Notes under the pieces: model-generated
What the model was told of the DNA's origin: nothing
The model's database searches: none
What the model saw: the letters and a program-made list of their open reading frames with translations, nothing else
In this document: piece after piece, positions 2,637 through 40,937 of the stretch
Numbering within the stretch: the first letter of the stretch is position 1
Layout of the letters: the number at the start of each line of letters is the position of its first letter
Assembly: GCA_009777255.1 (NCBI GenBank)
Contig: WRMG01000004.1
Span: 1-57,250, forward strand
DNA: 57,250 nt
Direction of reading: 5' to 3'
DNA from: Oscillospiraceae bacterium
Lineage (GTDB): Bacteria; Bacillota; Clostridia; Oscillospirales; UBA929
Made by a program: the position numbers and the translations under genes

Positions 2637-3224
2637 ATGATTCAAACATACGGATACATCCGTGTCAGCACAAAAGAACAAAGCGAAGACAGGCAGCTCA
2701 CCGCTATGCGGGAATTCGGAGTTCGGGAGGGTAATATATTTCTTGACAAGCTCTCGGGCAAAGACTTTGAAAGACCCTCATACAGGCGGTTGCTGAAAAA
2801 GCTAAAGCCTGTCGATACCCTTGTTATTAAGAGTATTGACAGGCTCGGCAGAAACTACGAGGAGATTTTAGAGCAGTGGAGATTTATAACAAAAGAGCGG
2901 CGAGCTAATATTGTCGTTCTTGATATGCCGCTGCTGGACACACGGCAAAAGAACCGCGATCTGACTGGAACCTTTATCGCCGACCTTGTTTTGCAGATTC
3001 TCAGCTATGTCGCGCAGACGGAGCGAGAGCTTATACGCCAGCGTCAGGCGGAGGGCATAGCCGCGGCAAAGGCGCGAGGCGTGAGATTCGGCAGACCGCC
3101 GATAGAGCGTCCGCCGCATTTACAAGAGGTTCAGAAAGCGTGGGAGCGCCGTGAAATATCGGCGCGTGAAGCCGCTCGGCGGCTGAATATCAACCGCATG
3201 ACATTTCTGGCGGCCGGACAGTGA
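2637..3224 (+). CDS. Serine recombinase, resolvase/invertase family with C-terminal HTH
   Basis: YGYIRVSTKEQ (catalytic Ser), DTLVIKSIDRLGR, ERELIRQRQAEGIAAAKARGVRFGRP; AAGGAGG RBS. Confidence 0.95.
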   Translation: MIQTYGYIRVSTKEQSEDRQLTAMREFGVREGNIFLDKLSGKDFERPSYRRLLKKLKPVDTLVIKSIDRLGRNYEEILEQWRFITKERRANIVVLDMPLLDTRQKNRDLTGTFIADLVLQILSYVAQTERELIRQRQAEGIAAAKARGVRFGRPPIERPPHLQEVQKAWERREISAREAARRLNINRMTFLAAGQ

Positions 3225-3235
3225 TATTTGTCAAA

Positions 3236-3413
3236 AAAAGTACAGGTTTTTAGCCACACGGCTACGGTATTCAAATTGGCTTTTAATAAATCTTATCGCA
3301 TAAGCACCTTTGGCGGAGCAGCAAGGGTTTGAGGCTTATATTCTCTTTATTTGCCAAGTATACAGCATTTGATTATAGATGTCAAGCATAAGTTGCTAAA
3401 AACCTGTACTTTT
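3236..3413. repeat. Perfect 19-bp inverted repeats bounding a putative invertible segment
   Basis: AAAAGTACAGGTTTTTAGC (3236-3254) and its exact reverse complement GCTAAAAACCTGTACTTTT (3395-3413). Confidence 0.9.
3357..3385 (-). promoter_or_regulatory. sigmaA promoter inside the invertible segment, facing away from the MACPF gene
   Basis: Minus strand TTGACA (3385-3380), 17-bp spacer, TATACT (3362-3357). Confidence 0.85.
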
Positions 3414-3513
3414 CTATACAAATCGTCCCTAAATGCCGCGCCGTATTATCAGGCGGAAAAATATCTTAAAACAGTCTGGCTTAACAAAATAATATAAAGA
3501 GAGGTTAACAAAA

Positions 3514-6500
3514 ATGAAAAGGAAGGCTTTATCTTTCGCGCTGGTTATAGCGTTGTTCGCGGGGCTAGTCCCGGTCGGAAGCATACCGGCAACGGCACTG
3601 GATCAGACCGGCATTGAACGTTATCTATTTAGAGGGTTCAATGTACTTTCAGGCAATGAACTCAGGATTGATGCTCTGCTGCGCCCCAATATTCTGGCTC
3701 CGAATTCCGATCTTGCCGGTCATTACAGAACCGACTCTAATGGGGACACTTATGTGGAAGCGTCCTCGGGTAAGACAATAGAAGACATGGCTATTGCGGC
3801 AGGGATTAATTTATCGGTTTCAACTAGCGTTAGTGGCGGTGTTGGTAGCTTATTCAAAGCGAGCGCAAAAACTAAATTTAACACGAGTGTGAGTACCGCA
3901 TATAAATCCTCCTACGATTCACATTTCTTTCAATCCTCTATATTTACTAAAACCGGTCAGGCTTACATAAACGATATGGAACACCCTGATACAATAAACG
4001 CTGTTCAAAGACAGCTAGACCGCAACTTCCTAAGCGAGCTTATAAACGAAAAAAACATCGAAAGGCTTTTCACAAGGTACGGCACCCACATTCTCACGTC
4101 GTACTCAGTTGGAGGATGGGCGGAATTTCAGACCTCGACCATTAACACAAAAGAAAATAGTGATAATGACGTGAAAATGAAATATGAAACTTCGGTATCG
4201 TTCTCTGGTGTAGGTACAAGTATGGACGCCGCGATGGACCTCGGGGCATATGTTAATGAAAAATACAATTCAGAAAACTATCGTTCATTTTCTTCTGCCC
4301 GCATTGTTGGCGGCTCTGGCGGAATCCCCAATTTTTCAGATCCCAACAGTGTGTCATCGGTATACAACACTTGGCTTGGCACAGTCCCGGCACGTCCCGA
4401 ACTGCTCACAGATAAAAATTTAGTGCTCACCGGTATATGGGAGCTGCTGCCTCAGGGAAACGAAAAGCGGTATATGGAACTGGTTCAGGAGTTTGTCAGA
4501 TTGGCGCAAAAAAGTCATTTAGATTTCTGCAAAGAATTTATCTATAAAGCGGCGGCATCCTTACATATAGAAGCCTCTGTAGATGATACAAGTGACGTGG
4601 CATCATACGACCCGAACACCACAATCCCTATATACACCGCGCAGCAGTTTGCCAACATCGGTGATGCTGATTTACCGGCTAACGGCAACTATATGCTGAT
4701 GAATGATATTAATCTTGATGAAATTAAAGTCTCGACCACCGGATATAGTTCACCATATGTCCTGATGTCTACAGGAAAAGAGTTTAACGGTACTTTTGAT
4801 GGGAATGGATTTACCATCAGCGGTTATAATAATGTGAAAAAAGCGAATTTTACAAGCTTTCCAACTACAGTAAACGTCGGCTTATTCCCTGTTATCGGAG
4901 AAAATGGACACGTAAGAAATCTAATAGTGAAAGGTTCCACGATTATCTATGAAGCTACAAATAATCGTATATCAAGCAACGTTATATATCGGGCAGGAAC
5001 CATTGCGGGACTTAACAAGGGCGTAATCGAAAATTGTCATGTTTCTGAAGAATCTGAGGTAAAAATAAGGGTTTATAGGAGTTCCGAAGCGCGGATTTAT
5101 TCGGGAGGAATTGCCGGTTACAACACTGGTAATATAATTGGGTGCAGTTTTACGAACAGTGATAACAAATATAAATCTGGTGACTATACGGGAAATGTTC
5201 TCGCTAGTGCTCCTGGGCGAGGTGGCACGGTATGGTGTTATTCCGGAGGAATTGCGGGCTGGTCAAACGGAGAAATAGTGGATTGCTATGCAGAGACTTG
5301 GACGCATTCGCGGGGTAGGGGAATGAGCGGTGTCCAAACAAAAGTCTATTTATATTCAGGAGGAATCGCAGGTTTGATAGACACAGGAGGAGTTGTATTA
5401 CGCTCCTTTGCCGATGGAGATGAAAAAACAACAAGAAATTATTCAAAGGAAGGAGAATTGGGTACCGGTAAAATAACAGGAAAGAACTCAGCCGGTTCCG
5501 GCGCGTTGATAGATTGCTTTTATAAAAGCGGAGGTGGAAATGCTGTAGGAAACGGAAGCTCAACCGGAACAACAGCGGTAGCAAATTTCAAAGTTAACGC
5601 AATAGTAGATATATTGCGGCCAGATAAAGATGATTCCAACTCCACATGGATATACGACGGGAATAAAGATCGCCCTACGCATAGAGAACCTGAGTCAGGT
5701 AATTCTCCTTATTTTATAGTAGAATACATAAATGGCAAACCGGAATATTTTGCGGGAGAACTCATGGACACAAATAAGCTGGCAAATAGCATGAGGGTTT
5801 TCTTCACTCCTAGTAAAGGTGTTGTTAAGCCTGTGGAAATAACAGACGCCGTGCAAATCAGATATGATTTTGCCGCCGAGGGAAATGGGTTTATACAATT
5901 CCTGCATCGAGATGGAGATAGCACCTATGCCGGCAAATTAGGTTTTCCGGTAATAGAACGCGATTTAGCGAGAGGAGAGGACCCGACCCACATAAACCTG
6001 AACAGAAGCGGCATTACGATGAAAGCTGGGAGTTCTGTACGATTACGGGTTGCCCTTGAACCGTTGCTTGCAAAGCAGGATATAACATGGGACAGCAGCA
6101 ATGAAGATGTCGTTTTCGTAACACCGTTTGGCGAGGTGCTTGCCATAGAAGAAGGCGAAACTGTCGTAACAGGCACGACGGTCAACGGTCTCACTTCGAC
6201 CTGCCATGTGGTGGTCAGCGGAAGGGTTATGCCGAATGGCATTGATTACGACATAGAAACCGTATTTGTACCGGGCAAAGTAAACGGCGAAATTGAAATG
6301 ACGTCTAACTCAGAAAAAAGCGATGAACCCGAAAATACAGACGACGCAGACGACGCAGACGACGATACAGACGATGACCCAGACGACGATACAGACGACC
6401 CAGACGACCCAGACGACATAGACGACATAGACGACATAGACGAGTCTAATCTTCCTGTGTTCAGAATAAATCTCACCGATGAAACCCTCATTGTTCCAAA

Positions 6501-7281
6501 TGATTATGTGATAGCCGTATACAGTGTAAATGGCGGAGGAAAATGGATCGTCCCGAAAGCCGATACATTCAATGATGTAAAATTTCCTAAGATGCTGCGC
6601 AAGGGCATGACAATGTGGCTTTCAGATAATAAGAGCAACCCCGAAGAAGGGAAACTTGTCAAGTTCGATACTGTTAAATCAGGTCTTACAGTCCCCAAAT
6701 TAGTTGTTAACTATGAAATTGCGTCAGACCCAACAGGCGCTACACTTGGCGACTGGGTTTTAGCTGCGAAAGGCGGAACAGCAGCGGTTAAAAATATTCA
6801 AATTGGCGCCGCAAACGGTAAAGAAGTAGATGATCAAGGCTATGGTGTATTTTTTGATGGTGAGGACAGCGGAATTTCCATTGCGCCCTTGAATAATAAT
6901 GGTAAAGCGGCAAAAGAGGCATATTTCATCAGAACAGCGCCGCATCAAGAGAGTGAATCAGTCTATGTCGCGGCTGGAAAGCCCAAAAAAATCAGCATAA
7001 AAGGTGAAGGGAAAGCGACGAAGTACAAAATAAACGCCAAAAAAAATTCACTTAAGCTAAAGAAAGGTGATCTGTTCTTCTGGGGTGATCCCTATGATCT
7101 TGGTGCAAATCCGTCTGCTGATTCGTCAGCTCAAATAACACCCGCACTGGAGTCGCTGCTATATATCACGGCGGACAAAGGGTCAGAGATCTCGGTAGAA
7201 AATGTGAGCGGCCAAATCGTCGTGTGGAAAGCGGGAACGGCAAAAAAACCTCCAACAGCAAAGCAGATAATAAACAGATAA
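3514..7281 (+). CDS. Secreted multidomain protein: signal peptide, MACPF domain, GLUG-like repeats, Ig-like (Big_2) domain, acidic linker, unknown C-terminal domain
   Basis: MACPF signature YGTHILTSYSVGG (codons from 4078) plus GFNVLSG near the N-terminus; FNGTFDGNGFTISG and repeated YSGGIAG motifs; ITWDSSNEDVVFVTPFGEVLAIEEGETVVT; noticeably AT-richer than the flanks. Confidence 0.85.
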   Translation: MKRKALSFALVIALFAGLVPVGSIPATALDQTGIERYLFRGFNVLSGNELRIDALLRPNILAPNSDLAGHYRTDSNGDTYVEASSGKTIEDMAIAAGINLSVSTSVSGGVGSLFKASAKTKFNTSVSTAYKSSYDSHFFQSSIFTKTGQAYINDMEHPDTINAVQRQLDRNFLSELINEKNIERLFTRYGTHILTSYSVGGWAEFQTSTINTKENSDNDVKMKYETSVSFSGVGTSMDAAMDLGAYVNEKYNSENYRSFSSARIVGGSGGIPNFSDPNSVSSVYNTWLGTVPARPELLTDKNLVLTGIWELLPQGNEKRYMELVQEFVRLAQKSHLDFCKEFIYKAAASLHIEASVDDTSDVASYDPNTTIPIYTAQQFANIGDADLPANGNYMLMNDINLDEIKVSTTGYSSPYVLMSTGKEFNGTFDGNGFTISGYNNVKKANFTSFPTTVNVGLFPVIGENGHVRNLIVKGSTIIYEATNNRISSNVIYRAGTIAGLNKGVIENCHVSEESEVKIRVYRSSEARIYSGGIAGYNTGNIIGCSFTNSDNKYKSGDYTGNVLASAPGRGGTVWCYSGGIAGWSNGEIVDCYAETWTHSRGRGMSGVQTKVYLYSGGIAGLIDTGGVVLRSFADGDEKTTRNYSKEGELGTGKITGKNSAGSGALIDCFYKSGGGNAVGNGSSTGTTAVANFKVNAIVDILRPDKDDSNSTWIYDGNKDRPTHREPESGNSPYFIVEYINGKPEYFAGELMDTNKLANSMRVFFTPSKGVVKPVEITDAVQIRYDFAAEGNGFIQFLHRDGDSTYAGKLGFPVIERDLARGEDPTHINLNRSGITMKAGSSVRLRVALEPLLAKQDITWDSSNEDVVFVTPFGEVLAIEEGETVVTGTTVNGLTSTCHVVVSGRVMPNGIDYDIETVFVPGKVNGEIEMTSNSEKSDEPENTDDADDADDDTDDDPDDDTDDPDDPDDIDDIDDIDESNLPVFRINLTDETLIVPNDYVIAVYSVNGGGKWIVPKADTFNDVKFPKMLRKGMTMWLSDNKSNPEEGKLVKFDTVKSGLTVPKLVVNYEIASDPTGATLGDWVLAAKGGTAAVKNIQIGAANGKEVDDQGYGVFFDGEDSGISIAPLNNNGKAAKEAYFIRTAPHQESESVYVAAGKPKKISIKGEGKATKYKINAKKNSLKLKKGDLFFWGDPYDLGANPSADSSAQITPALESLLYITADKGSEISVENVSGQIVVWKAGTAKKPPTAKQIINR
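6337..6444 (+). repeat. In-frame 9/12-bp tandem repeats encoding an Asp-rich linker
   Basis: GACGACGCA, GACGACCCA and GACGACATA units giving DDADDADDDTDDDPDDDTDDPDDPDDIDDIDDIDE. Confidence 0.9.
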
Positions 7282-7289
7282 TAGACGGT

Positions 7290-7331
7290 ATAAAACCCCG
7301 GTGCAGTCGAGTACTGTGCCGGGATTTTTAT
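7290..7331 (+). terminator. Probable intrinsic terminator after the MACPF gene
   Basis: CCCGGTGCAGT...ACTGTGCCGGG stem followed by ATTTTTA. Confidence 0.65.
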
Positions 7332-7379
7332 GCCTCATACAATAAGCATAAATTGGCGGCAAATTGCCAATAAATTCTG

Positions 7380-7485
7380 TTTACATATATATTTTTTTGA
7401 GATATAATATCCGCAAAGCGGATATTATACTTGATTAAAGATTATATCATTCGGCGTCAACGCCGTAAGATATAATATCCGCAAA
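7380..7485 (+). promoter_or_regulatory. sigmaA promoter overlapped by a palindrome and an 18-bp direct repeat
   Basis: TTTACA-17-TATAAT (7380-7408); palindrome TATAATATCCGC-AAA-GCGGATATTATA; AGATATAATATCCGCAAA at 7400-7417 and 7468-7485. Confidence 0.6.
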
Positions 7486-7515
7486 CTTGAAGCAAGAAAA
7501 CAGGGGTGATGTACC

Positions 7516-8436
7516 ATGGTGACCTATTCGATCGTCGTGCCGCTCTACAACGAGGAGGAGGTCGTCGGCGAGGCATACCGGCGGCTGAAATCCGTCATGG
7601 ACGGCATCGGCGAACCGTATGAGCTTATCTTCGTCAACGACGGCAGCAAAGACTCAACGATGGATAAGGCGCGCGCGTTGGCAAAGCAAGACTCAAAAAT
7701 GAGAATTATCAGCTTTTCCCGCAACTTCGGGCATCAAATCGCCATAACGGCGGGCATGGACGCGGCGCGCGGACAAGCCGTCGTGGTCATAGACGCCGAC
7801 CTCCAGGACCCGCCGGAAGTGATCCCGCAGATGATAGAAAAGTGGAAAGAGGGCTGGCAGGTCGTCTATGGCAGGCGCGCGGGCCGTAAAGGCGAAACAC
7901 TGTTCAAAAAGCTAAGCGCAAAGCTATTCTACAGAACGCTCAACGCGCTGACGGACATCGAACTGCCGGTGGACACGGGGGACTTCCGGCTCATCGACCG
8001 CAGCGTGTGCGACGCGCTAAAAACATTGCCGGAGCGCAACCGGTATGTACGCGGACTGGTAACGTGGGTCGGATTCAGGCAGACATTCGTCGAATATACG
8101 CGTCAGGAACGCTTCGCGGGACAGACAAAATACCCTCTCAAGAAGATGCTGCGCTTTGCCGCCGACGGCATGGTGTCATTCAGCCAAAGACCTATCAAAA
8201 TTGGGAAAACACTGGGAATCACTACAATTTCCGCCTCTATTCTGATAGGGGTATATCAGTTGTATAGCTGGGCAACAAAGTCGAATATAAGCGAAATTGC
8301 GTGCTGGGCCGCGGCAATTCTGTTTGTTCAGGGTCTTGTTCTGCTGTGCATCGGAATACAGGGCGCGTACCTAGCGAGAATGTACGACGAGGCAAAGGGC
8401 AGACCATTATATATAATAGGGGAGGTCATAAATTGA
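7516..8436 (+). CDS. GT2 glycosyltransferase (GtrB/YkcC-like polyprenol-phosphate glycosyltransferase)
   Basis: SIVVPLYNEE, FVNDGSKD, FSRNFGHQ, IDADLQDPP, two C-terminal TM helices, RPLYII. Confidence 0.93.
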   Translation: MVTYSIVVPLYNEEEVVGEAYRRLKSVMDGIGEPYELIFVNDGSKDSTMDKARALAKQDSKMRIISFSRNFGHQIAITAGMDAARGQAVVVIDADLQDPPEVIPQMIEKWKEGWQVVYGRRAGRKGETLFKKLSAKLFYRTLNALTDIELPVDTGDFRLIDRSVCDALKTLPERNRYVRGLVTWVGFRQTFVEYTRQERFAGQTKYPLKKMLRFAADGMVSFSQRPIKIGKTLGITTISASILIGVYQLYSWATKSNISEIACWAAAILFVQGLVLLCIGIQGAYLARMYDEAKGRPLYIIGEVIN

Positions 8437-8837
8437 AAAACCATGAGCTGATTGAGATGGCCAAAGCTATGCTGTCAAAAGCATATGTGCCATACTCAAA
8501 ATTCCCTGTCGGCGCCGCGATTTTATGCGAGGACGGGACAATCTACACCGGATGCAACATAGAAAACGCGGCCTATGGGCCGACAATCTGCGCGGAACGC
8601 GCGGCGCTGTGCAGAGCTGTATGCGACGGAAATCTCAAAATCGAGAAAGTAGCGGTCGTTGCCGAAACAGAGGACTATTGCTACCCCTGCGGCGTATGCC
8701 GCCAGACGCTCTATGAATTTAACCCCCGCATGAAGATCATATGCGGCCGTCATGACGGCACAATAAAGGAACATACACTTGACGAACTGCTGCCCTGCGC
8801 CTTTGGACCGGTATCGCTGAACGACAAGCTGAGCTGA
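8433..8837 (+). CDS. cdd: Cytidine deaminase
   Basis: AYVPYSKFPVGAA, GCNIENA, CAER, PCGVCRQ; TTG start at 8433 after GGAGGT. Confidence 0.95.
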   Translation: MKNHELIEMAKAMLSKAYVPYSKFPVGAAILCEDGTIYTGCNIENAAYGPTICAERAALCRAVCDGNLKIEKVAVVAETEDYCYPCGVCRQTLYEFNPRMKIICGRHDGTIKEHTLDELLPCAFGPVSLNDKLS

Positions 8838-9159
8838 TAAAAAAGCTCCGCGCCGAAGGGCGGCCGCCCTCATTTTTACGCCAATTCTGCGAATCAAGTT
8901 AAGTAGAGAACTAACAAACAAATGGAATACTAAATAATTCTCATATATTAACAATATTCTACAAAATGAGAATAAATTCGATGTAATATCCCGCGGCAAT
9001 CCTATCACTTGAACGCGAAACACAAGATATAGAAAAGACACGAAGAAAAACCACTGCAAATTGAAAATAACACTACTGTAGTAAACTAACAAACACAAAT
9101 CCCGCTTCAACGCGAAATGAGAAATCATGAGAAACAAAAACCCTTTTGTTAAAAAATTC

Positions 9160-36185: not shown

Positions 36186-36725
36186 TTATACGGTGAGATT
36201 ATACTCGCTTCTTAATATTCGCATCATAATGAAATCGCTGAACTTCCCGTTATGGAAGTATCCCTGCTCTTGAATACCCTCTTTCTTGAATCCAAGCCGT
36301 TCCCAATACTTCATGGCTTGTGTATTCAACGCGACAACGCCGATTGATACACGGTTCATGCTGTGATAACGGAAAGCTCTGTCTAACATCAGCCGCCCCG
36401 CTTCAATGCCATATCCTTTGCCTTGATCGTCAGGATTGGGAATAATCATCGACATGTCCGTACAATGCCAATGGCGCCACATACGGAGAAATCCGGTTTC
36501 ACCGACAATCCGGCCGGAAATATCAGTAATTGCGTACCATTCTTCTTCGGCTGTTTCCGGACGCTGTATTTTCTTCAGTTCATATTCAAAGGTTGTCGGT
36601 TCATGGAATCCGCATTGAAACATAACCTTTGACTCATTATACCAGCGGGCAAAAAATGCCGCGTCCCCGTCGCATAAAGCTCTTAGAACGACTTTTTTTC
36701 CGTGAATTGGTTCTTTCACCGGCAA
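36186..36725 (-). CDS. GNAT acetyltransferase (RimJ/RimL-like)
   Basis: GKKVVLR, QGKGYG, N..A.KYWERLGFKKEG, D.I.MRILRSE. Confidence 0.85.
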   Translation of the reverse strand: MPVKEPIHGKKVVLRALCDGDAAFFARWYNESKVMFQCGFHEPTTFEYELKKIQRPETAEEEWYAITDISGRIVGETGFLRMWRHWHCTDMSMIIPNPDDQGKGYGIEAGRLMLDRAFRYHSMNRVSIGVVALNTQAMKYWERLGFKKEGIQEQGYFHNGKFSDFIMMRILRSEYNLTV

Positions 36726-36788
36726 TCTATCCTCACTAAATATAAAATTTCTATATCCGGCGCGCCGCGGTTTGCTTATATTATGGGG

Positions 36789-37148
36789 CTATCGCTCCAG
36801 ATGCTTTAGTATTTCGAGCAGTTCTTCTTTCTCCAGCTTGCCGTAAACTTCCAAATCGCCGGAAAAGCCCCCCTGAGATATTCCGTTTGTGAAGCCATAA
36901 TGATATTGTATGCCGGCTTCGTTTTCAAATTCTACATACCCCGTCCATTCGGCATAGCCCAGGAATAAACCGGCGAATGAGTGCTTTACTGAAATATCTC
37001 TTATTTCAGAGGCTGAATATCCTTTGCTTTCCAAATAAGCGAGCAAATTTTTTGTACGGGCCGAGCTGCCGGAAACAGAGTAGATTCCGCAACAAACCGC
37101 AATTAATATTACAGCAGATAATATGCCGGCAATTATTTTCTTTTTCAA
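36789..37148 (-). CDS. Small exported/membrane-anchored hypothetical protein (DUF3139-like)
   Basis: MKKK plus hydrophobic helix; YLESKGY...I, VEFENE..I.Y.Y. Confidence 0.6.
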   Translation of the reverse strand: MKKKIIAGILSAVILIAVCCGIYSVSGSSARTKNLLAYLESKGYSASEIRDISVKHSFAGLFLGYAEWTGYVEFENEAGIQYHYGFTNGISQGGFSGDLEVYGKLEKEELLEILKHLER

Positions 37149-37177: not shown

Positions 37178-37399
37178 TTAGATTCTGCTGTTATAGTTGT
37201 CTATTGACATATCTATATCTTTCAGAATCTTACGTATCAATGACCTATCTAAATCCACCGCGTGCATTGGGACAACTGTGGTACGCCCGTCGGCGTGCCG
37301 GTAAAAACGATGGCTTCCTTTTTGCCTTATGGCGGCAAATCCGTCATTTTCCAACAGCTTACACATGTCGGCGCTTGATATTATTTTTAGTTTGCTCAT
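37178..37399 (-). CDS. hicA: HicA family toxin
   Basis: LENDGF..IRQKGSH..YRH.DGRTTVVPMH. Confidence 0.92.
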   Translation of the reverse strand: MSKLKIISSADMCKLLENDGFAAIRQKGSHRFYRHADGRTTVVPMHAVDLDRSLIRKILKDIDMSIDNYNSRI

Positions 37400-37611
37400 A
37401 CTGCAATCTCTATCTGCTGAACGCCTATAAATTTTGCGGAGACCGGAACATCGTCTTCTATTTCAAGGCACAATTCTATAACCTCATGAATTTTTTCCAG
37501 TAACACAGGTATCGTATCGGCCTGCGTGTAGCAGCTTTTTAATGAGGGCACTGTCGCAATATAAGCGCCGTCTTCCCCCTGTTCGATTAACACGGTAAAA
37601 TTATATCTCAT
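37396..37611 (-). CDS. hicB: HicB family antitoxin (short form, no DNA-binding domain)
   Basis: FTVLIEQGEDGAYIATVPSLKSCYTQADT; start may be GTG 37623. Confidence 0.9.
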   Translation of the reverse strand: MRYNFTVLIEQGEDGAYIATVPSLKSCYTQADTIPVLLEKIHEVIELCLEIEDDVPVSAKFIGVQQIEIAV

Positions 37612-37625
37612 GTTATACAACACTC

Positions 37626-38675: not shown

Positions 38676-38710
38676 ATGTCCGTCTATGTCGCTTATAGCT
38701 GTGGTATGTT
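38676..38710 (+). promoter_or_regulatory. Putative activator-dependent promoter of the capsid module
   Basis: ATGTC direct repeats 10 bp apart (38676, 38686) in place of a -35, then TG-n-TATGTT. Confidence 0.4.
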
Positions 38711-38750
38711 TTATACGCAAGGATGCTTAATACAAAAAAGGAGAGATACC

Positions 38751-39158
38751 ATGAACAAATGTGATGAAACCGCGGCGGATACCGTCATTGAAACGGCCGC
38801 TGACGGCGAAACCATCGAAACCCCTATGGACGTTGACGACGACATTGCGGATTTCAGGCAGGCGTACCCCGGCGTGCGGCTGGACAAGCTTGTCACGTCG
38901 CCCGCGTTTTTGAGCTTCGGCAAAAACCGTTTCGGCATCGAGCCGTTTAAGGAGATTTACAAGGAATACAAGGAGCTTGTAAGGATCATCGAAGGCGAGG
39001 CGCTGGCCAGACGGGAGAGGCGCAGCAGACGCTCGACGGGCAGCGGGCAGTCCGAGCCGTTTACGGGGCTGAGCCGCGAACAGACAGAACAGCTGGATTT
39101 GTGGAACAAGACATACCCGCATCTCAGAATGACCGCAAACGAATTTTTGAACAGATAG
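38751..39158 (+). CDS. Putative phage head scaffolding-like protein
   Basis: 135 aa; acidic N-terminus, DFRQAYPGV, helical middle, STGS, LSREQ...MTANEF tail typical of scaffolds; AAGGAG RBS; lies upstream of the capsid gene. Confidence 0.6.
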   Translation: MNKCDETAADTVIETAADGETIETPMDVDDDIADFRQAYPGVRLDKLVTSPAFLSFGKNRFGIEPFKEIYKEYKELVRIIEGEALARRERRSRRSTGSGQSEPFTGLSREQTEQLDLWNKTYPHLRMTANEFLNR

Positions 39159-39175
39159 AAGGAGGAATTTATATT

Positions 39176-39817
39176 ATGAACCCCAGTTTTGACCTTTCGG
39201 GCTCGCAGGTGCGTCAGGCGCGAGAGTATCCCATTGACGGGAGTACGGTTATAATCAGCGGGCAGACCGTGGCCCTGGCCGACGGCAAAGTCGTCGCCGC
39301 GCCGCCCTCGGCGGCCGCGGTGCTGGGCGTCGCCGCCGAAAACCATCTCGGCGTAAGCGACGCGTTCAACCCGCGCTCCAACGGCGGAGCTATCAAGGTT
39401 TACGACTCGCCCACGCAGGTATATGTCTGCAAGACGCCGGAATACACCGTGCTGACAGGCGATACGGACTTCTTCACCTGCGCCGCGAAAACGGCGGGCC
39501 TGAAAAACGGCCGCGCCAAGCTTGTGGACAAGGAAGCCGGTTCAACGAACAAGGACCCGCTCGGCACGGCCTATAACATAATCAGCTCCGAGGCGAACGG
39601 CAAAATCACCATCGACCGCGGCGAAGGCGGCGGGCAGATAGCGGCCGGCGACGTGTTCGAGCTGTATCCGCCGGTGGGCTATGCGACCGGCAAATTAAAC
39701 GCGAAGCTCTGCGGGATAAGCCTTGACGCCGAGCTTGCCGATTCGGCGCTCACCGTCGTCGGGCATGTGCCCGGGCTTGGGCTGACCGAGATTAAACTGA
39801 AAACCATTTTCGCGTAA
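39176..39817 (+). CDS. Putative capsid decoration/cement-like protein
   Basis: 213 aa; EYPI...I.SGQTVAL..GKVVAA...VLGVAAE...IKVYDSP..VY pattern; AGGAGG RBS; immediately precedes the major capsid gene. Confidence 0.55.
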   Translation: MNPSFDLSGSQVRQAREYPIDGSTVIISGQTVALADGKVVAAPPSAAAVLGVAAENHLGVSDAFNPRSNGGAIKVYDSPTQVYVCKTPEYTVLTGDTDFFTCAAKTAGLKNGRAKLVDKEAGSTNKDPLGTAYNIISSEANGKITIDRGEGGGQIAAGDVFELYPPVGYATGKLNAKLCGISLDAELADSALTVVGHVPGLGLTEIKLKTIFA

Positions 39818-39831
39818 GGAGGAAAAAAAGA

Positions 39832-40782
39832 ATGAATACAACCGCATGGAAAAGCGACAACCATAAATTCGTGGGCAAGGCGTTTGAGATCGCCTATAAT
39901 AACCGTATGAGCGCTCTGAAGGAGATCTGCGGCGAAGTAAGCGACAATAACACCGCCGATTACACGCTGGAGGGGCTGGGCGGCTTTCACGAGTACGCGC
40001 CGTATAACGGCACGACCCTTACCGCCGGCACCTGTAAGCGCGGCTTTTCAACCATCATCATCCCCAGAGAGTTCAACCTGTCGGTTGATATAGGCTATAT
40101 GGAGGCGAAGACCGATCAGATCGGCGTCACGCGTAAGGCCGGAGCGCAGCTCGGCAATTCCGGCGCGATGACCGTTTACGCGCATCTGCTCAGGCTGTTC
40201 GGCGGCGCGTTCAATAAGGACATGCCGGGCGGCGACGGCCGGCCCTGGGCCAGCGACAAGCACTGGCAGGCGTCAAAGGGCAGCGCCAACCGCGTGAGTC
40301 TTCCCGACGAGGCGGCGGGGACCTTCTCGAACATGATAAAAGAGGAACTCTCAACTGCCGCCATAACCAAGGCGCAGATACTGGCCTCGCGCTTTGTAAC
40401 GCCCGACGGGCTGCCGTTTTTGTGCGAGATGGACACGCTGCTTGTCTCGCCGGAGCTTGAGCCCAAGGCCAAGGAGCTGTGCGGCGTGAACGCCAAGCTG
40501 GCGCCCGTGCTTAACCCCGACGGCGATACGAACGCCGCCAACCCCATTTACGGTATGCGCTATCTTGTAATCGGCGGCGGGCGCGACGGCTTTACAAAAA
40601 ATCAGTGGGCCGTCTGCGACTCAAGGCTTATGAAGGAAACCGTTATGCTGGTGTATAACGAGAAGCCGCGCGTGCTGCAAATCGAGCTTGACAACCCGCT
40701 GATCGACCGCTATGTCGGCTATGCCTGCTTCGGAGTGGGCTGGGGCGACGCGAGGAGCATCATCTTCTCCACCGGCGGCTGA
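39832..40782 (+). CDS. Major capsid protein, Mu gpT-like (HK97 fold)
   Basis: 316 aa; GLGGF, GGDGRPWASDKH, DGLP....DTLLVSPELE..A, NAANP, terminal FGVGWGDARSIIFSTG; AAGGAGG RBS. Confidence 0.8.
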   Translation: MNTTAWKSDNHKFVGKAFEIAYNNRMSALKEICGEVSDNNTADYTLEGLGGFHEYAPYNGTTLTAGTCKRGFSTIIIPREFNLSVDIGYMEAKTDQIGVTRKAGAQLGNSGAMTVYAHLLRLFGGAFNKDMPGGDGRPWASDKHWQASKGSANRVSLPDEAAGTFSNMIKEELSTAAITKAQILASRFVTPDGLPFLCEMDTLLVSPELEPKAKELCGVNAKLAPVLNPDGDTNAANPIYGMRYLVIGGGRDGFTKNQWAVCDSRLMKETVMLVYNEKPRVLQIELDNPLIDRYVGYACFGVGWGDARSIIFSTGG

Positions 40783-40807
40783 GCTTAACCGACCGCCGAT
40801 CCCCGCG

Positions 40808-40839
40808 AAAAAACGACCGCTGAATGCGGTCGTATTTTT
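40808..40839 (+). terminator. Terminator closing the capsid module
   Basis: ACGACCGC-TGAAT-GCGGTCGT followed by ATTTTT. Confidence 0.75.
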
Positions 40840-40937
40840 CGCCATACCCACCTCTCATAGTAATTATAGGACACATTGTCCTTTTTGTCAATAGGAATAT
40901 TTGTCCAGCATTATAATTGTTGCGGTGGTGACAAATT

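Follow-up and report, generated by a model that had tools for sequence, protein, structure and literature searches.

An isolated phage head module in an Oscillospiraceae genome as a probable locus of a dispersed, podovirus-like element of gene-transfer-agent type

Why would a bacterial chromosome keep three genes for the head of a tailed phage, standing alone among metabolic genes? The question is raised by contig WRMG01000004.1 of an Oscillospiraceae bacterium (assembly GCA_009777255.1), which was analyzed over its full length of 57,250 nucleotides, referred to below as the window. The window is contig C4 of a binned metagenome-assembled genome, G000 (1.17 Mb in 55 contigs, 64% complete). Its three head genes encode the proteins P0001, P0002 and P0003 and are denoted here module B. 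From comparative sequence analysis, we consider it probable that this locus is one of at least three loci of a dispersed, selectively maintained, podovirus-like element of the gene transfer agent (GTA) type. We favor this reading because the genome also holds, at other sites, a TerL-portal module (module A, contig C24 of G000) and a tail module (module C, contig C42) of the same phage lineage, because the split is common to a sister species, and because purifying selection acts on the genes. The element descends from a short-tailed phage whose family has these genes side by side in a single block. In the lineage of G000, its congener G002 and the genome sampled by metagenome contig L099, that block is divided into three pieces, apart from one another and next to cellular genes. 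None of the eight genes is disrupted, and purifying selection has maintained them over a divergence that equals that of housekeeping genes in depth.

The head module and its three proteins

Module B consists of three co-oriented open reading frames (ORFs), each ATG being preceded by an AGGAG/GGAGG box. The features of the locus are as follows.

38676..38712, + strand: promoter-like motif, consisting of the direct repeat ATGTCC-N4-ATGTCG and, after a spacer of 11 nt, GGTATG; from its start to the first ATG the distance is 75 nt
38751..39158, + strand: P0001, putative scaffold-type head-assembly protein, short form, 135 amino acids (homology and position)
39176..39817, + strand: P0002, all-beta protein, probably of capsid decoration/cement type, 213 amino acids (structural matches and gene position)
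39832..40782, + strand: P0003, HK97-fold major capsid protein (Mu gpT-like), 316 amino acids (Pfam, PHROG, Foldseek)
40813..40839, + strand: intrinsic-terminator-like hairpin, with an 8 bp stem of which 6 pairs are GC, followed by ATTTTT

On the 5' side lies hprK, which is divergent from the module and has orthologues 75-77% identical in the congeners G003 and G001. On the 3' side are an HTH_3/XRE gene, an SNF transporter gene (both identified with Pfam) and a GNAT gene. An initial annotation of the window, made from its letters alone, had described three intact, co-oriented ORFs with strong ribosome-binding sites, their own 5' region and a terminator, set between hprK and the XRE and SNF genes and host-like in GC content. 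All of this was confirmed; the GC content is 0.55-0.59 in the module region and 0.556 over the entire contig. The same annotation saw no other phage gene in the window, which holds for the related phage family and for integrases, the scope covered here. That is, when 3903 ORFs of at least 80 amino acids from 80 related viral loci were compared with the contig by tblastn, matches were confined to 38832-40815, with phages outside that family lying beyond this search. Phage_integrase has two matches in G000, both on contig C22, and none on C4, C24 or C42. No replication or excision gene was seen beside module B, in the window flanks or in L099, where not every flanking ORF was scanned.

Chance ORFs are excluded, as 620 database proteins match P0003 at E<=1e-3, one of them 86% identical and the rest at most 62%. 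P0003 passes the Pfam cut-off for Mu-like_gpT (PF10124) marginally, at 20.9 bits against 20.1 (E 2.5e-4) and over residues 15-156 only, and it matches phrog_371, 'major head protein', with E 1.7e-3. An AlphaFold2 model based on 26 homologues (predicted local distance difference test score, pLDDT, 67; predicted template-modeling score, pTM, 0.71) shows a long helix at residues 97-124; confidence is low at 48-86, the expected site of the E-loop. Foldseek returned 156 matches of this model in the PDB at E<=1e-3; all those listed are HK97-fold capsids or encapsulins (template-modeling scores 0.36-0.57), with the HRP29 procapsid at the top and the capsid of RcGTA (6tb9, 6tsu) among them. A sequence profile search of the PDB with the P0003 family alignment yielded no capsid, only chance-level matches to OMPLA (E 0.12-0.73). 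NCBIfam has no family for any of the three proteins.

The AlphaFold2 model of P0002 is all-beta, with a mean pLDDT of 94. Foldseek gave no match at E<=1e-3. In an exhaustive VIA-align search, the best full-length matches were capsid decoration or stabilizing proteins, led by that of HFTV1 (8qsy_JI; Z 9.5, 118 residues aligned, root-mean-square deviation 3.7) and including those of Sf11, BB1, FCWL1 and TW1, gp8.5 of phi29 and gpD of lambda (Z 5.5-7.7), these Z values being middling. Residues ~85-170 also resemble small beta-barrel domains. We read P0002 as a probable decoration or cement protein, on the consistency of these structural matches together with the position of its gene.

P0001 has no Pfam family. 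The part of P0001 from residue 28 to 135 can be aligned with the C-terminal domain of a protein whose gene lies 5' of the capsid gene in relatives (hhalign 99.6%, E 2.4e-24), and in one related viral locus, L011, the homologous gene lies between portal and capsid. The homologues usually have 258-338 residues. A truncation of P0001 need not be assumed, since short forms of 126-157 residues exist in six viral loci. The name 'scaffold' is thus a putative one, based on position and homology. A predicted scaffold-capsid complex scored 0.29, with the mark at 0.32, which counts neither for nor against binding. Taken together, the Pfam, PHROG, hhalign and structure matches support the scaffold, decoration and HK97/gpT-like capsid identities first proposed for the three proteins, including the HK97 fold of the 316-residue product.

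One block in relatives, three modules in G000 and G002

No phage in INPHARED matched P0003 at E<=1e-3 (tblastn), and a scan of IMG/VR with P0003 alone confirmed no contig. The same scan with the P0003 family alignment confirmed 121 contigs, 80 of which, up to ~44 kb long and with 53-60% identity in the major capsid protein (MCP), were kept as the set of viral loci. A P0001 homologue is present in 74/80 of these loci and a P0002 homologue in 76/80. All three genes occur together in 70/80, in the order scaffold-decoration-capsid in 68 of the 70 and with the decoration gene after the capsid gene in 2. In L011 they are part of a block that runs TerS, TerL, portal, scaffold, decoration, MCP, genes of 98, 188 and 619 codons, the last for a virion protein, and a collagen-like tail fibre. 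L011 also has genes for a replication initiator, an endolysin and a sigma-like regulator, so the lineage includes true phages. The locus in the window has the same three-gene order, while TerS, replication initiator, regulator and endolysin are what the phage-like L011 adds.

Among bacteria, P0003 alone found matches in 2/61 relatives (G000 included), and the family alignment in 22/401 genomes of the order. In 20/20 of the other MCP-bearing genomes of the order, TerL, portal and MCP form one block of ~9-10 kb on one strand, whereas in genus g1, to which G000 and G002 belong, the block is cut into three. The order is TerL-portal-MCP in 19/20; the exception is G136, where the portal gene follows the virion gene. 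Homologues of the scaffold, decoration and tail genes were detected in some of these 20 genomes. The flanks of the blocks include a two-component system, a D-Ala-D-Ala carboxypeptidase, a GH4 enzyme and PolA in G200, and a pilin-like protein, MBOAT and DHHW proteins in G154. When congeneric pairs were aligned, the block and part of its flanks matched in 5/6, at 70-92% DNA identity, the sixth locus being too short to include flanks. The MCP is found in 11/16 species of the genus of G154 (8/9 of its high-quality genomes) and in 3/4 species of the genus of G200. The blocks of the pairs G200/G280 and G154/G242 thus resemble the element of G000 in their homologous TerL, portal and MCP (41-57% MCP identity) and their cellular flanks, and are syntenic between congeners. 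Within the lineage there are thus true phages, blocks that are contiguous and fixed in the chromosome, and the tripartite arrangement of G000.

Two further observations concern these relatives. The portal gene lies 3' of the virion and tail genes not only in G136 (locus L130) but also in IMG/VR loci such as L038; gene order in the lineage is therefore already plastic. In G268 (C116:44852-45792), the MCP homologue matches in two adjoining pieces, corresponding to profile positions 3-150 and 151-316, which suggests a frameshift or a sequencing error.

The initial annotation had named one locus of a genomically split GTA as a possibility, and had suggested a search of the rest of the genome for terminase, portal and tail loci; such loci are present. 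When the 3903 viral ORFs were compared with G000, strong matches were also found at C24:7875-10810 and C42:354-3197. Module A lies mid-contig on the - strand of C24 and consists of a small conserved ORF, TerL and the portal gene; a gene for a 223-residue protein follows. The TerL has 453 residues (Terminase_6N, 38.5 bits; phrog_979, E 2e-46), and the portal protein 529 (P22_portal, 50.6 bits; phrog_156, E 9e-26), with a best phage match of 42% identity over 565 residues (E 8e-134). Both proteins retain most of the positions conserved in their relatives. The TerL keeps its Walker A motif, GGAAGGGKT; relatives share 75 TerL columns at a conservation of >=95%, and G000 agrees with them in 66 and G002 in 68 of these, the corresponding counts for the portal protein being 53 and 48 of 56. 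The neighbors of module A are cellular: an AlgX-like SGNH hydrolase, a sensor with Fe-hydrogenase and methyl-accepting chemotaxis (MCP) domains, a CheW-REC protein and an ABC-2 transporter. Module C, on C42, encodes a 202-residue protein, a 554-residue virion protein (phrog_3287, virion structural; 27-31% identical to phage proteins of ~620 residues) and a 647-residue tail fibre; a class-V aminotransferase gene and a Se/S carrier gene lie 3' of it.

The 223-residue protein encoded after the portal gene (C24 7164-7835) is rich in proline and methionine and is 45% identical, over 132 residues, to a 253-residue homologue in G002. It was considered as the missing N-terminal half of the scaffold and rejected (hhalign 0.2%), and it belongs to no Pfam or PHROG family. 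On contig C14 of G002, four cellular genes (TetR, flavodoxin, a 125-residue ORF and AAA_14/DUF4143) stand between the portal gene and that of the 253-residue homologue. Several candidates for TerS were rejected as well. The ORF of ~62 codons that overlaps the TerL start (C24 10816-11058) is kept in G002, at 53% identity over 57 residues; it has no convincing match among phage ORFs (best E 0.11) and belongs to no known family. The matches of phrog_51, a TerS family, on contigs C44 and C27 of G000 are short and N-terminal only, and each contains a TAG codon. The only good TerS match in G002, on contig C6, is part of a separate element rather than of this system. That element (locus L157 of C6, 8439-11714) comprises a helix-turn-helix (HTH) gene, genes for a replication initiator and TerS, and an intact TerL gene, whose product shares 63% identity with the TerL of IMG/VR locus L019; a capsid gene of the P0003 family is not found next to it.

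G002 is the closest to G000 of the three congeners, with 77-80% DNA identity as compared with 74-77% for G003 and 71% for G001 over the same genes. It also has three separate modules, B on contig C44, A on C14 and C on C31, with identities to G000 of 91% for the MCP, 72% for the portal protein and 54% for the tail module. Modules A and C of G002 are mid-contig; TerL and portal lie at ~33-35 kb of the 37.9 kb contig C14, and a divergent Uma2-family gene borders module C. C44, C14 and C31 carry no integrase. A third copy of module B, with an MCP 94% identical to P0003, is carried by L099, a metagenome contig of 57.7 kb, ~6.4 kb from hprK and flanked by genes for EamA, GNATs, PhzF, a transglutaminase and an HD protein. 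Around module B, the DNA alignment of G000 with G002 is limited to the module itself, at 76% identity. Synteny between these two genomes is short-ranged everywhere, not at the modules alone: a 20 kb housekeeping stretch of G000 aligns at 69-80% DNA identity and is spread over at least three contigs of G002.

Selection was assessed from the ratio of nonsynonymous to synonymous substitution rates (dN/dS; Nei-Gojobori) in eight orthologous pairs from the single species pair G000 and G002. The ratios, which are rough as dS is saturated, are 0.13 for the scaffold, 0.22 for the decoration protein, 0.034 for the MCP, 0.079 for TerL, 0.105 for the portal protein, and 0.18, 0.26 and 0.28 for the tail genes, the last being the fibre. 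The dS values of these pairs (1.1-2.4) are like those of the host. Six reciprocal ORF pairs taken as controls gave dS 1.25-2.2 and dN/dS 0.05-0.17, with the proviso that some of the smaller ones may be antisense frames; the two clearest housekeeping controls (658 and 938 residues) gave dS 1.25 and 2.0 and dN/dS 0.048 and 0.062, respectively. None of the eight orthologue pairs contains a stop codon in either genome. In an MCP tree from a quick search, with a midpoint root for drawing only, the three copies from genus g1 (G000, G002 and L099) form one clade with support of 100 in the Shimodaira-Hasegawa-like approximate likelihood ratio test. Its stem is 0.57 and its tips 0.008-0.078 long, and its sister is a clade dominated by IMG/VR contigs.

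Upstream repeats and the surrounding sequence

A direct repeat, [AT]TGTC[AC]-N4-ATGTC[AG], stands 5' of modules B and C in both G000 and G002, and 5' of module B in L099. It is followed 11 nt later by G[GC]TA, except at module C of G002, where the direct repeat alone is kept. The full pattern, TGTC[AC]N4ATGTC[AG]N11G[GC]TA, has 4 sites in the 1.17 Mb of G000 (C4:38677, C42:275, C1:56718 and C11:14994), the first two of which precede modules B and C. About 0.014 sites would be expected from base composition, by our own arithmetic from the 1.8 expected for a shorter pattern. A position weight matrix was built from these four sites, so those of modules B and C in G000 are training sites. With this matrix, the best scores are 20.5-22.4 for module A of G000, 11.6 for module A of G002, 22.3 and 23.2 for module B of G002 and L099, and 6.4 for module C of G002. 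For comparison, the 99th percentile of 300-nt windows of the real genome, training sites included, is 6.9, and the best scores in three shuffled genomes are 15.5-19.5. The module B sites of the different genomes are orthologous, and hence not independent.

Outside the modules, the site at C11:14994 (locus L158, 1995-2830) precedes a gene for a cell-wall hydrolase (PG_binding_1 and Hydrolase_2), near parA/parB-like genes. Motif sites at C1:56718, C3:22218 and C40:3114 were set aside, as no obvious co-oriented gene lies 3' of any of them. A simple sigma-70 scan of the + strand 5' of the module B operon gave no match. Repeats with a period of 10 that abut a -10-like element are reminiscent of activator-dependent promoters. 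It is conceivable, and we propose it tentatively, that the three or more loci for packaging, head and tail are reunited at transcription by a shared promoter of a response-regulator-type activator (TGTC-N6-TGTC, period 10, replacing the -35 box), i.e., that one former phage operon has become a host-wired regulon.

Other repeats near the modules proved not to be specific to them. Hairpin repeats of the GTAGGGG type (67-77 matches) and the palindrome TGTTTCACGTGAAACA (70 matches, on both strands of G000) are dispersed genome-wide, with copies just 5' of modules A and C and at contig ends. These dispersed repeats may be the cause of assembly breaks, and could mediate rearrangements. Elements of ~30 nt at ~25630 and 27858 of the window have matches of 94-97% identity on many contigs of G002.

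As to the regulatory genes beside module B, the adjoining XRE genes of G000 and G002 are not orthologues, the G002 copy matching contig C22 of G000 best, and no HTH gene stands next to module B in L099. Between the capsid terminator and the XRE gene of the window, at 40863-40914, lies a perfect sigma-70 consensus on the - strand (TTGACA-17-TATAAT, 12/12), whose two hexamers enclose an AGGACA-N3-TGTCCT palindrome. A weaker promoter-like site on the + strand, directed toward the XRE gene, overlaps this consensus, and the arrangement looks like an autoregulated operator. Past hprK, a HicA/HicB pair identified with Pfam (37178-37623, - strand), a DUF3139-like gene and a GNAT gene (36186-37148) stand between hprK and a ROK kinase gene. 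In G003 the ROK kinase gene directly follows hprK, so that this 1.4 kb of the window looks like an insertion. Farther away, at 3514-7281 on the + strand, an ORF of 1255 codons with MACPF/perforin, GLUG and Big_2 domains precedes a GT2 glycosyltransferase gene, within a stretch (3000-9000) whose GC content is 0.42-0.49 as compared with 0.556 for the contig.

Competing readings, known systems and significance

The domestication of the head genes put forward in the initial annotation is supported by the cellular flanks, by the lack of an integrase on the module contigs and by dN/dS values of 0.03-0.28. Its variant of one locus of a split GTA fits the modules A and C of the same lineage elsewhere in G000 and the equal split in G002. 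Under this reading, module B would be the head-assembly operon of a phage-derived particle system whose genes are fixed in the chromosome but spread over three or more sites. Modules A, B and C would be switched on together from the shared activator-type promoter, and their products would build a capsid with a portal and a short tail. The conserved terminase might then fill the capsid with DNA, giving a GTA-like particle such as that reported for FpGTA of Faecalibacterium prausnitzii.

Several points weigh against this reading of module B as part of a dispersed, GTA-type element. Its distribution is narrow: the MCP occurs in 2/4 species of genus g1 (G000 included), neither MCP nor portal was found in G001 (76% complete) or G003 (83% complete), and the sequence beside hprK in those two genomes is not module B. 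A distant homologue (35%) of the 554-residue protein was found in G001, on a short contig. The module flanks differ between G000 and G002. No TerS, head-tail adaptor (the 98-codon phage gene), endolysin or holin was tied to the system in G000 or G002, no search having been aimed at holins. The assemblies are also imperfect. G000 is 64% complete and in 55 contigs; C42 has only 7.5 kb and a higher GC content (0.62), with module C starting 353 nt from its end; and C44 of G002 begins 230 nt before module B. The measure of selection comes from one species pair with saturated dS. As for the motif, the score of module A in G000 is just above the shuffled best of 19.5, that of module C in G002 is slightly below the 99th percentile, and no motif was found 5' of the hydrolase homologues in G001-G003.

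The same dispersed particle system might serve an end other than gene transfer, either as a PBSX-like defective phage or killer particle or by lysis-linked packaging without delivery, which we regard as improbable. The FpGTA report leaves such a role open for that system (PMC12946183), and the 554-residue protein of module C has a weak amidase match (phrog_5107, E 2e-5). However, no tailocin-type sheath or tube genes were seen, and the tail set is podovirus-like, with a P22-type portal and a fibre. The conserved TerL motifs show that packaging matters, although this is compatible with both readings.

We think it quite unlikely that modules A, B and C are the dispersed remains of a single old prophage, each retained for a purpose of its own and not working together, as capsid-scaffold decoys against related phages would be, for example. 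Related true phages do exist, as L011 indicates. The initial annotation had envisaged a simple remnant as patchy, neutrally evolving and closest to prophages; the patchiness within the genus is real, and flanks differ between species, with a HicAB pair and XRE genes near module B. Neutral evolution, in contrast, is not seen, as the genes of the three loci, eight in all, are free of disruption and show dN/dS 0.03-0.28 at dS >1, the TerL ATPase motif is preserved, and the MCPs of genus g1 form a clade apart from the phage-rich one. A rare 5' motif is moreover common to modules B and C, with a weaker form before A. Capsid interference, another of the early proposals, would have no need of the complete set kept here, which includes a portal, a terminase, a decoration protein and three tail genes. 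It is disfavored, as is a nanocompartment, because a conserved packaging ATPase, a portal and a tail set accompany the capsid genes.

There is little to recommend the idea of a capsid-forming satellite, or another still-mobile element that borrows helper-phage functions. The capsid of EcCI2 (9gyi), a capsid-forming phage-inducible chromosomal island (cf-PICI), is among the top fold matches of P0003 (ranks 3-4, E 1e-6), and G002 carries the separate Rep-TerS-TerL element on C6. Yet the fold matches reflect the common HK97 fold, not membership. EcCI2 and the encapsulins resemble the module as HK97-fold shells encoded outside complete phages; satellites, though, encode their own integrase, replication and excision functions and rely on the tails of a helper, and none of these features fits. 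The module contigs of both genomes are without an integrase (no search was made for att repeats), the neighbors of module B show no gene for replication or excision, and the divergence equals that of the host.

An encapsulin-like nanocompartment holding enzymes rather than DNA is scarcely credible. Encapsulins are frequent among the highest-ranking fold matches of P0003 (E 2e-6 to 5e-5), and the module stands alone among metabolic genes. But its partners are phage scaffold-type and decoration proteins instead of a cargo enzyme, the same three genes occur in the same order in 68/80 viral loci and lie inside a terminase-portal-tail block in L011, and the genome retains a matching portal and terminase. 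Encapsulins have no scaffold, portal or terminase and stand beside cargo genes; the module differs on each point. An assembly or binning artefact that split an ordinary prophage is equally hard to sustain: G000 is a fragmentary bin, and C42 and C44 of G002 break near modules beside dispersed repeats, but modules A and B of G000 and A and C of G002 are mid-contig between cellular genes, and L099 independently has module B near hprK, which also speaks against the assembly chimera allowed for at the outset. On the features tested, the simple-remnant, artefact, encapsulin and satellite readings each fail.

The element of G000 and the RcGTA of Rhodobacter capsulatus are both domesticated tailed-phage particles. 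RcGTA genes are located at several co-regulated loci under host regulators. RcGTA is siphovirus-like, of an unrelated lineage and host phylum, and its head-to-tail genes form one main cluster. PBSX is a contiguous myovirus-like prophage region, whereas the element of G000 shows no sign of a contractile tail. PBSX of Bacillus has in common with the element of G000 that it is of phage origin, fixed in the chromosome and found in a Gram-positive host; it packages host DNA. The FpGTA report names it GTA-like (PMC12946183).

The finding is less novel than the initial annotation assumed: FpGTA, a closely similar two-operon system, was published in 2026. According to that report (PMC12946183, Nat Commun 2026), its two operons are 125 kb apart. 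Operon I (10.5 kb, ten ORFs) encodes TerS, TerL, portal, scaffold, MCP and hypothetical proteins; operon II (5.5 kb) encodes baseplate, fibre, receptor-binding protein, holin and endolysin; and the particles measure 40 nm and contain ~8.5-9 kb of DNA. The accessions given there are RCH50849.1 for the MCP of FpGTA and RCH50851.1 for its portal protein. GTA-like packaging is reported there in Ruminococcaceae, in which Faecalibacterium is placed, and in Oscillospiraceae (PMC12946183). The two elements share related Gram-positive gut anaerobes as hosts, genes for TerL, portal, scaffold, MCP, hypothetical proteins and a tail fibre, the lack of autonomous phage functions, more than one chromosomal locus and conservation across species of a genus. 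They differ in that FpGTA has packaging and head genes together in operon I, whereas G000 and G002 have TerL-portal, scaffold-decoration-MCP and tail genes at three loci. The element of G000 has a decoration gene, while TerS, holin and endolysin are assigned in FpGTA and not in G000. FpGTA is backed by particle, DNA and proteomic evidence; the element of G000 is known from its genes, and the two were compared by description. No description of a three-way split element was found in a limited literature search.

To our knowledge, GTAs outside Alphaproteobacteria are few. The locus described here suggests that domestication of this one phage lineage took place in several genera of the order. In genus g1, a former single operon would have been broken into head, packaging and tail operons with all of its genes surviving, which makes it a natural experiment on the degree of dispersal that a phage morphogenetic operon tolerates without ceasing to function. 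The shared motif is a candidate cis-element for finding the host regulator. The case is also a warning that prophage finders will overlook such 2-kb modules.

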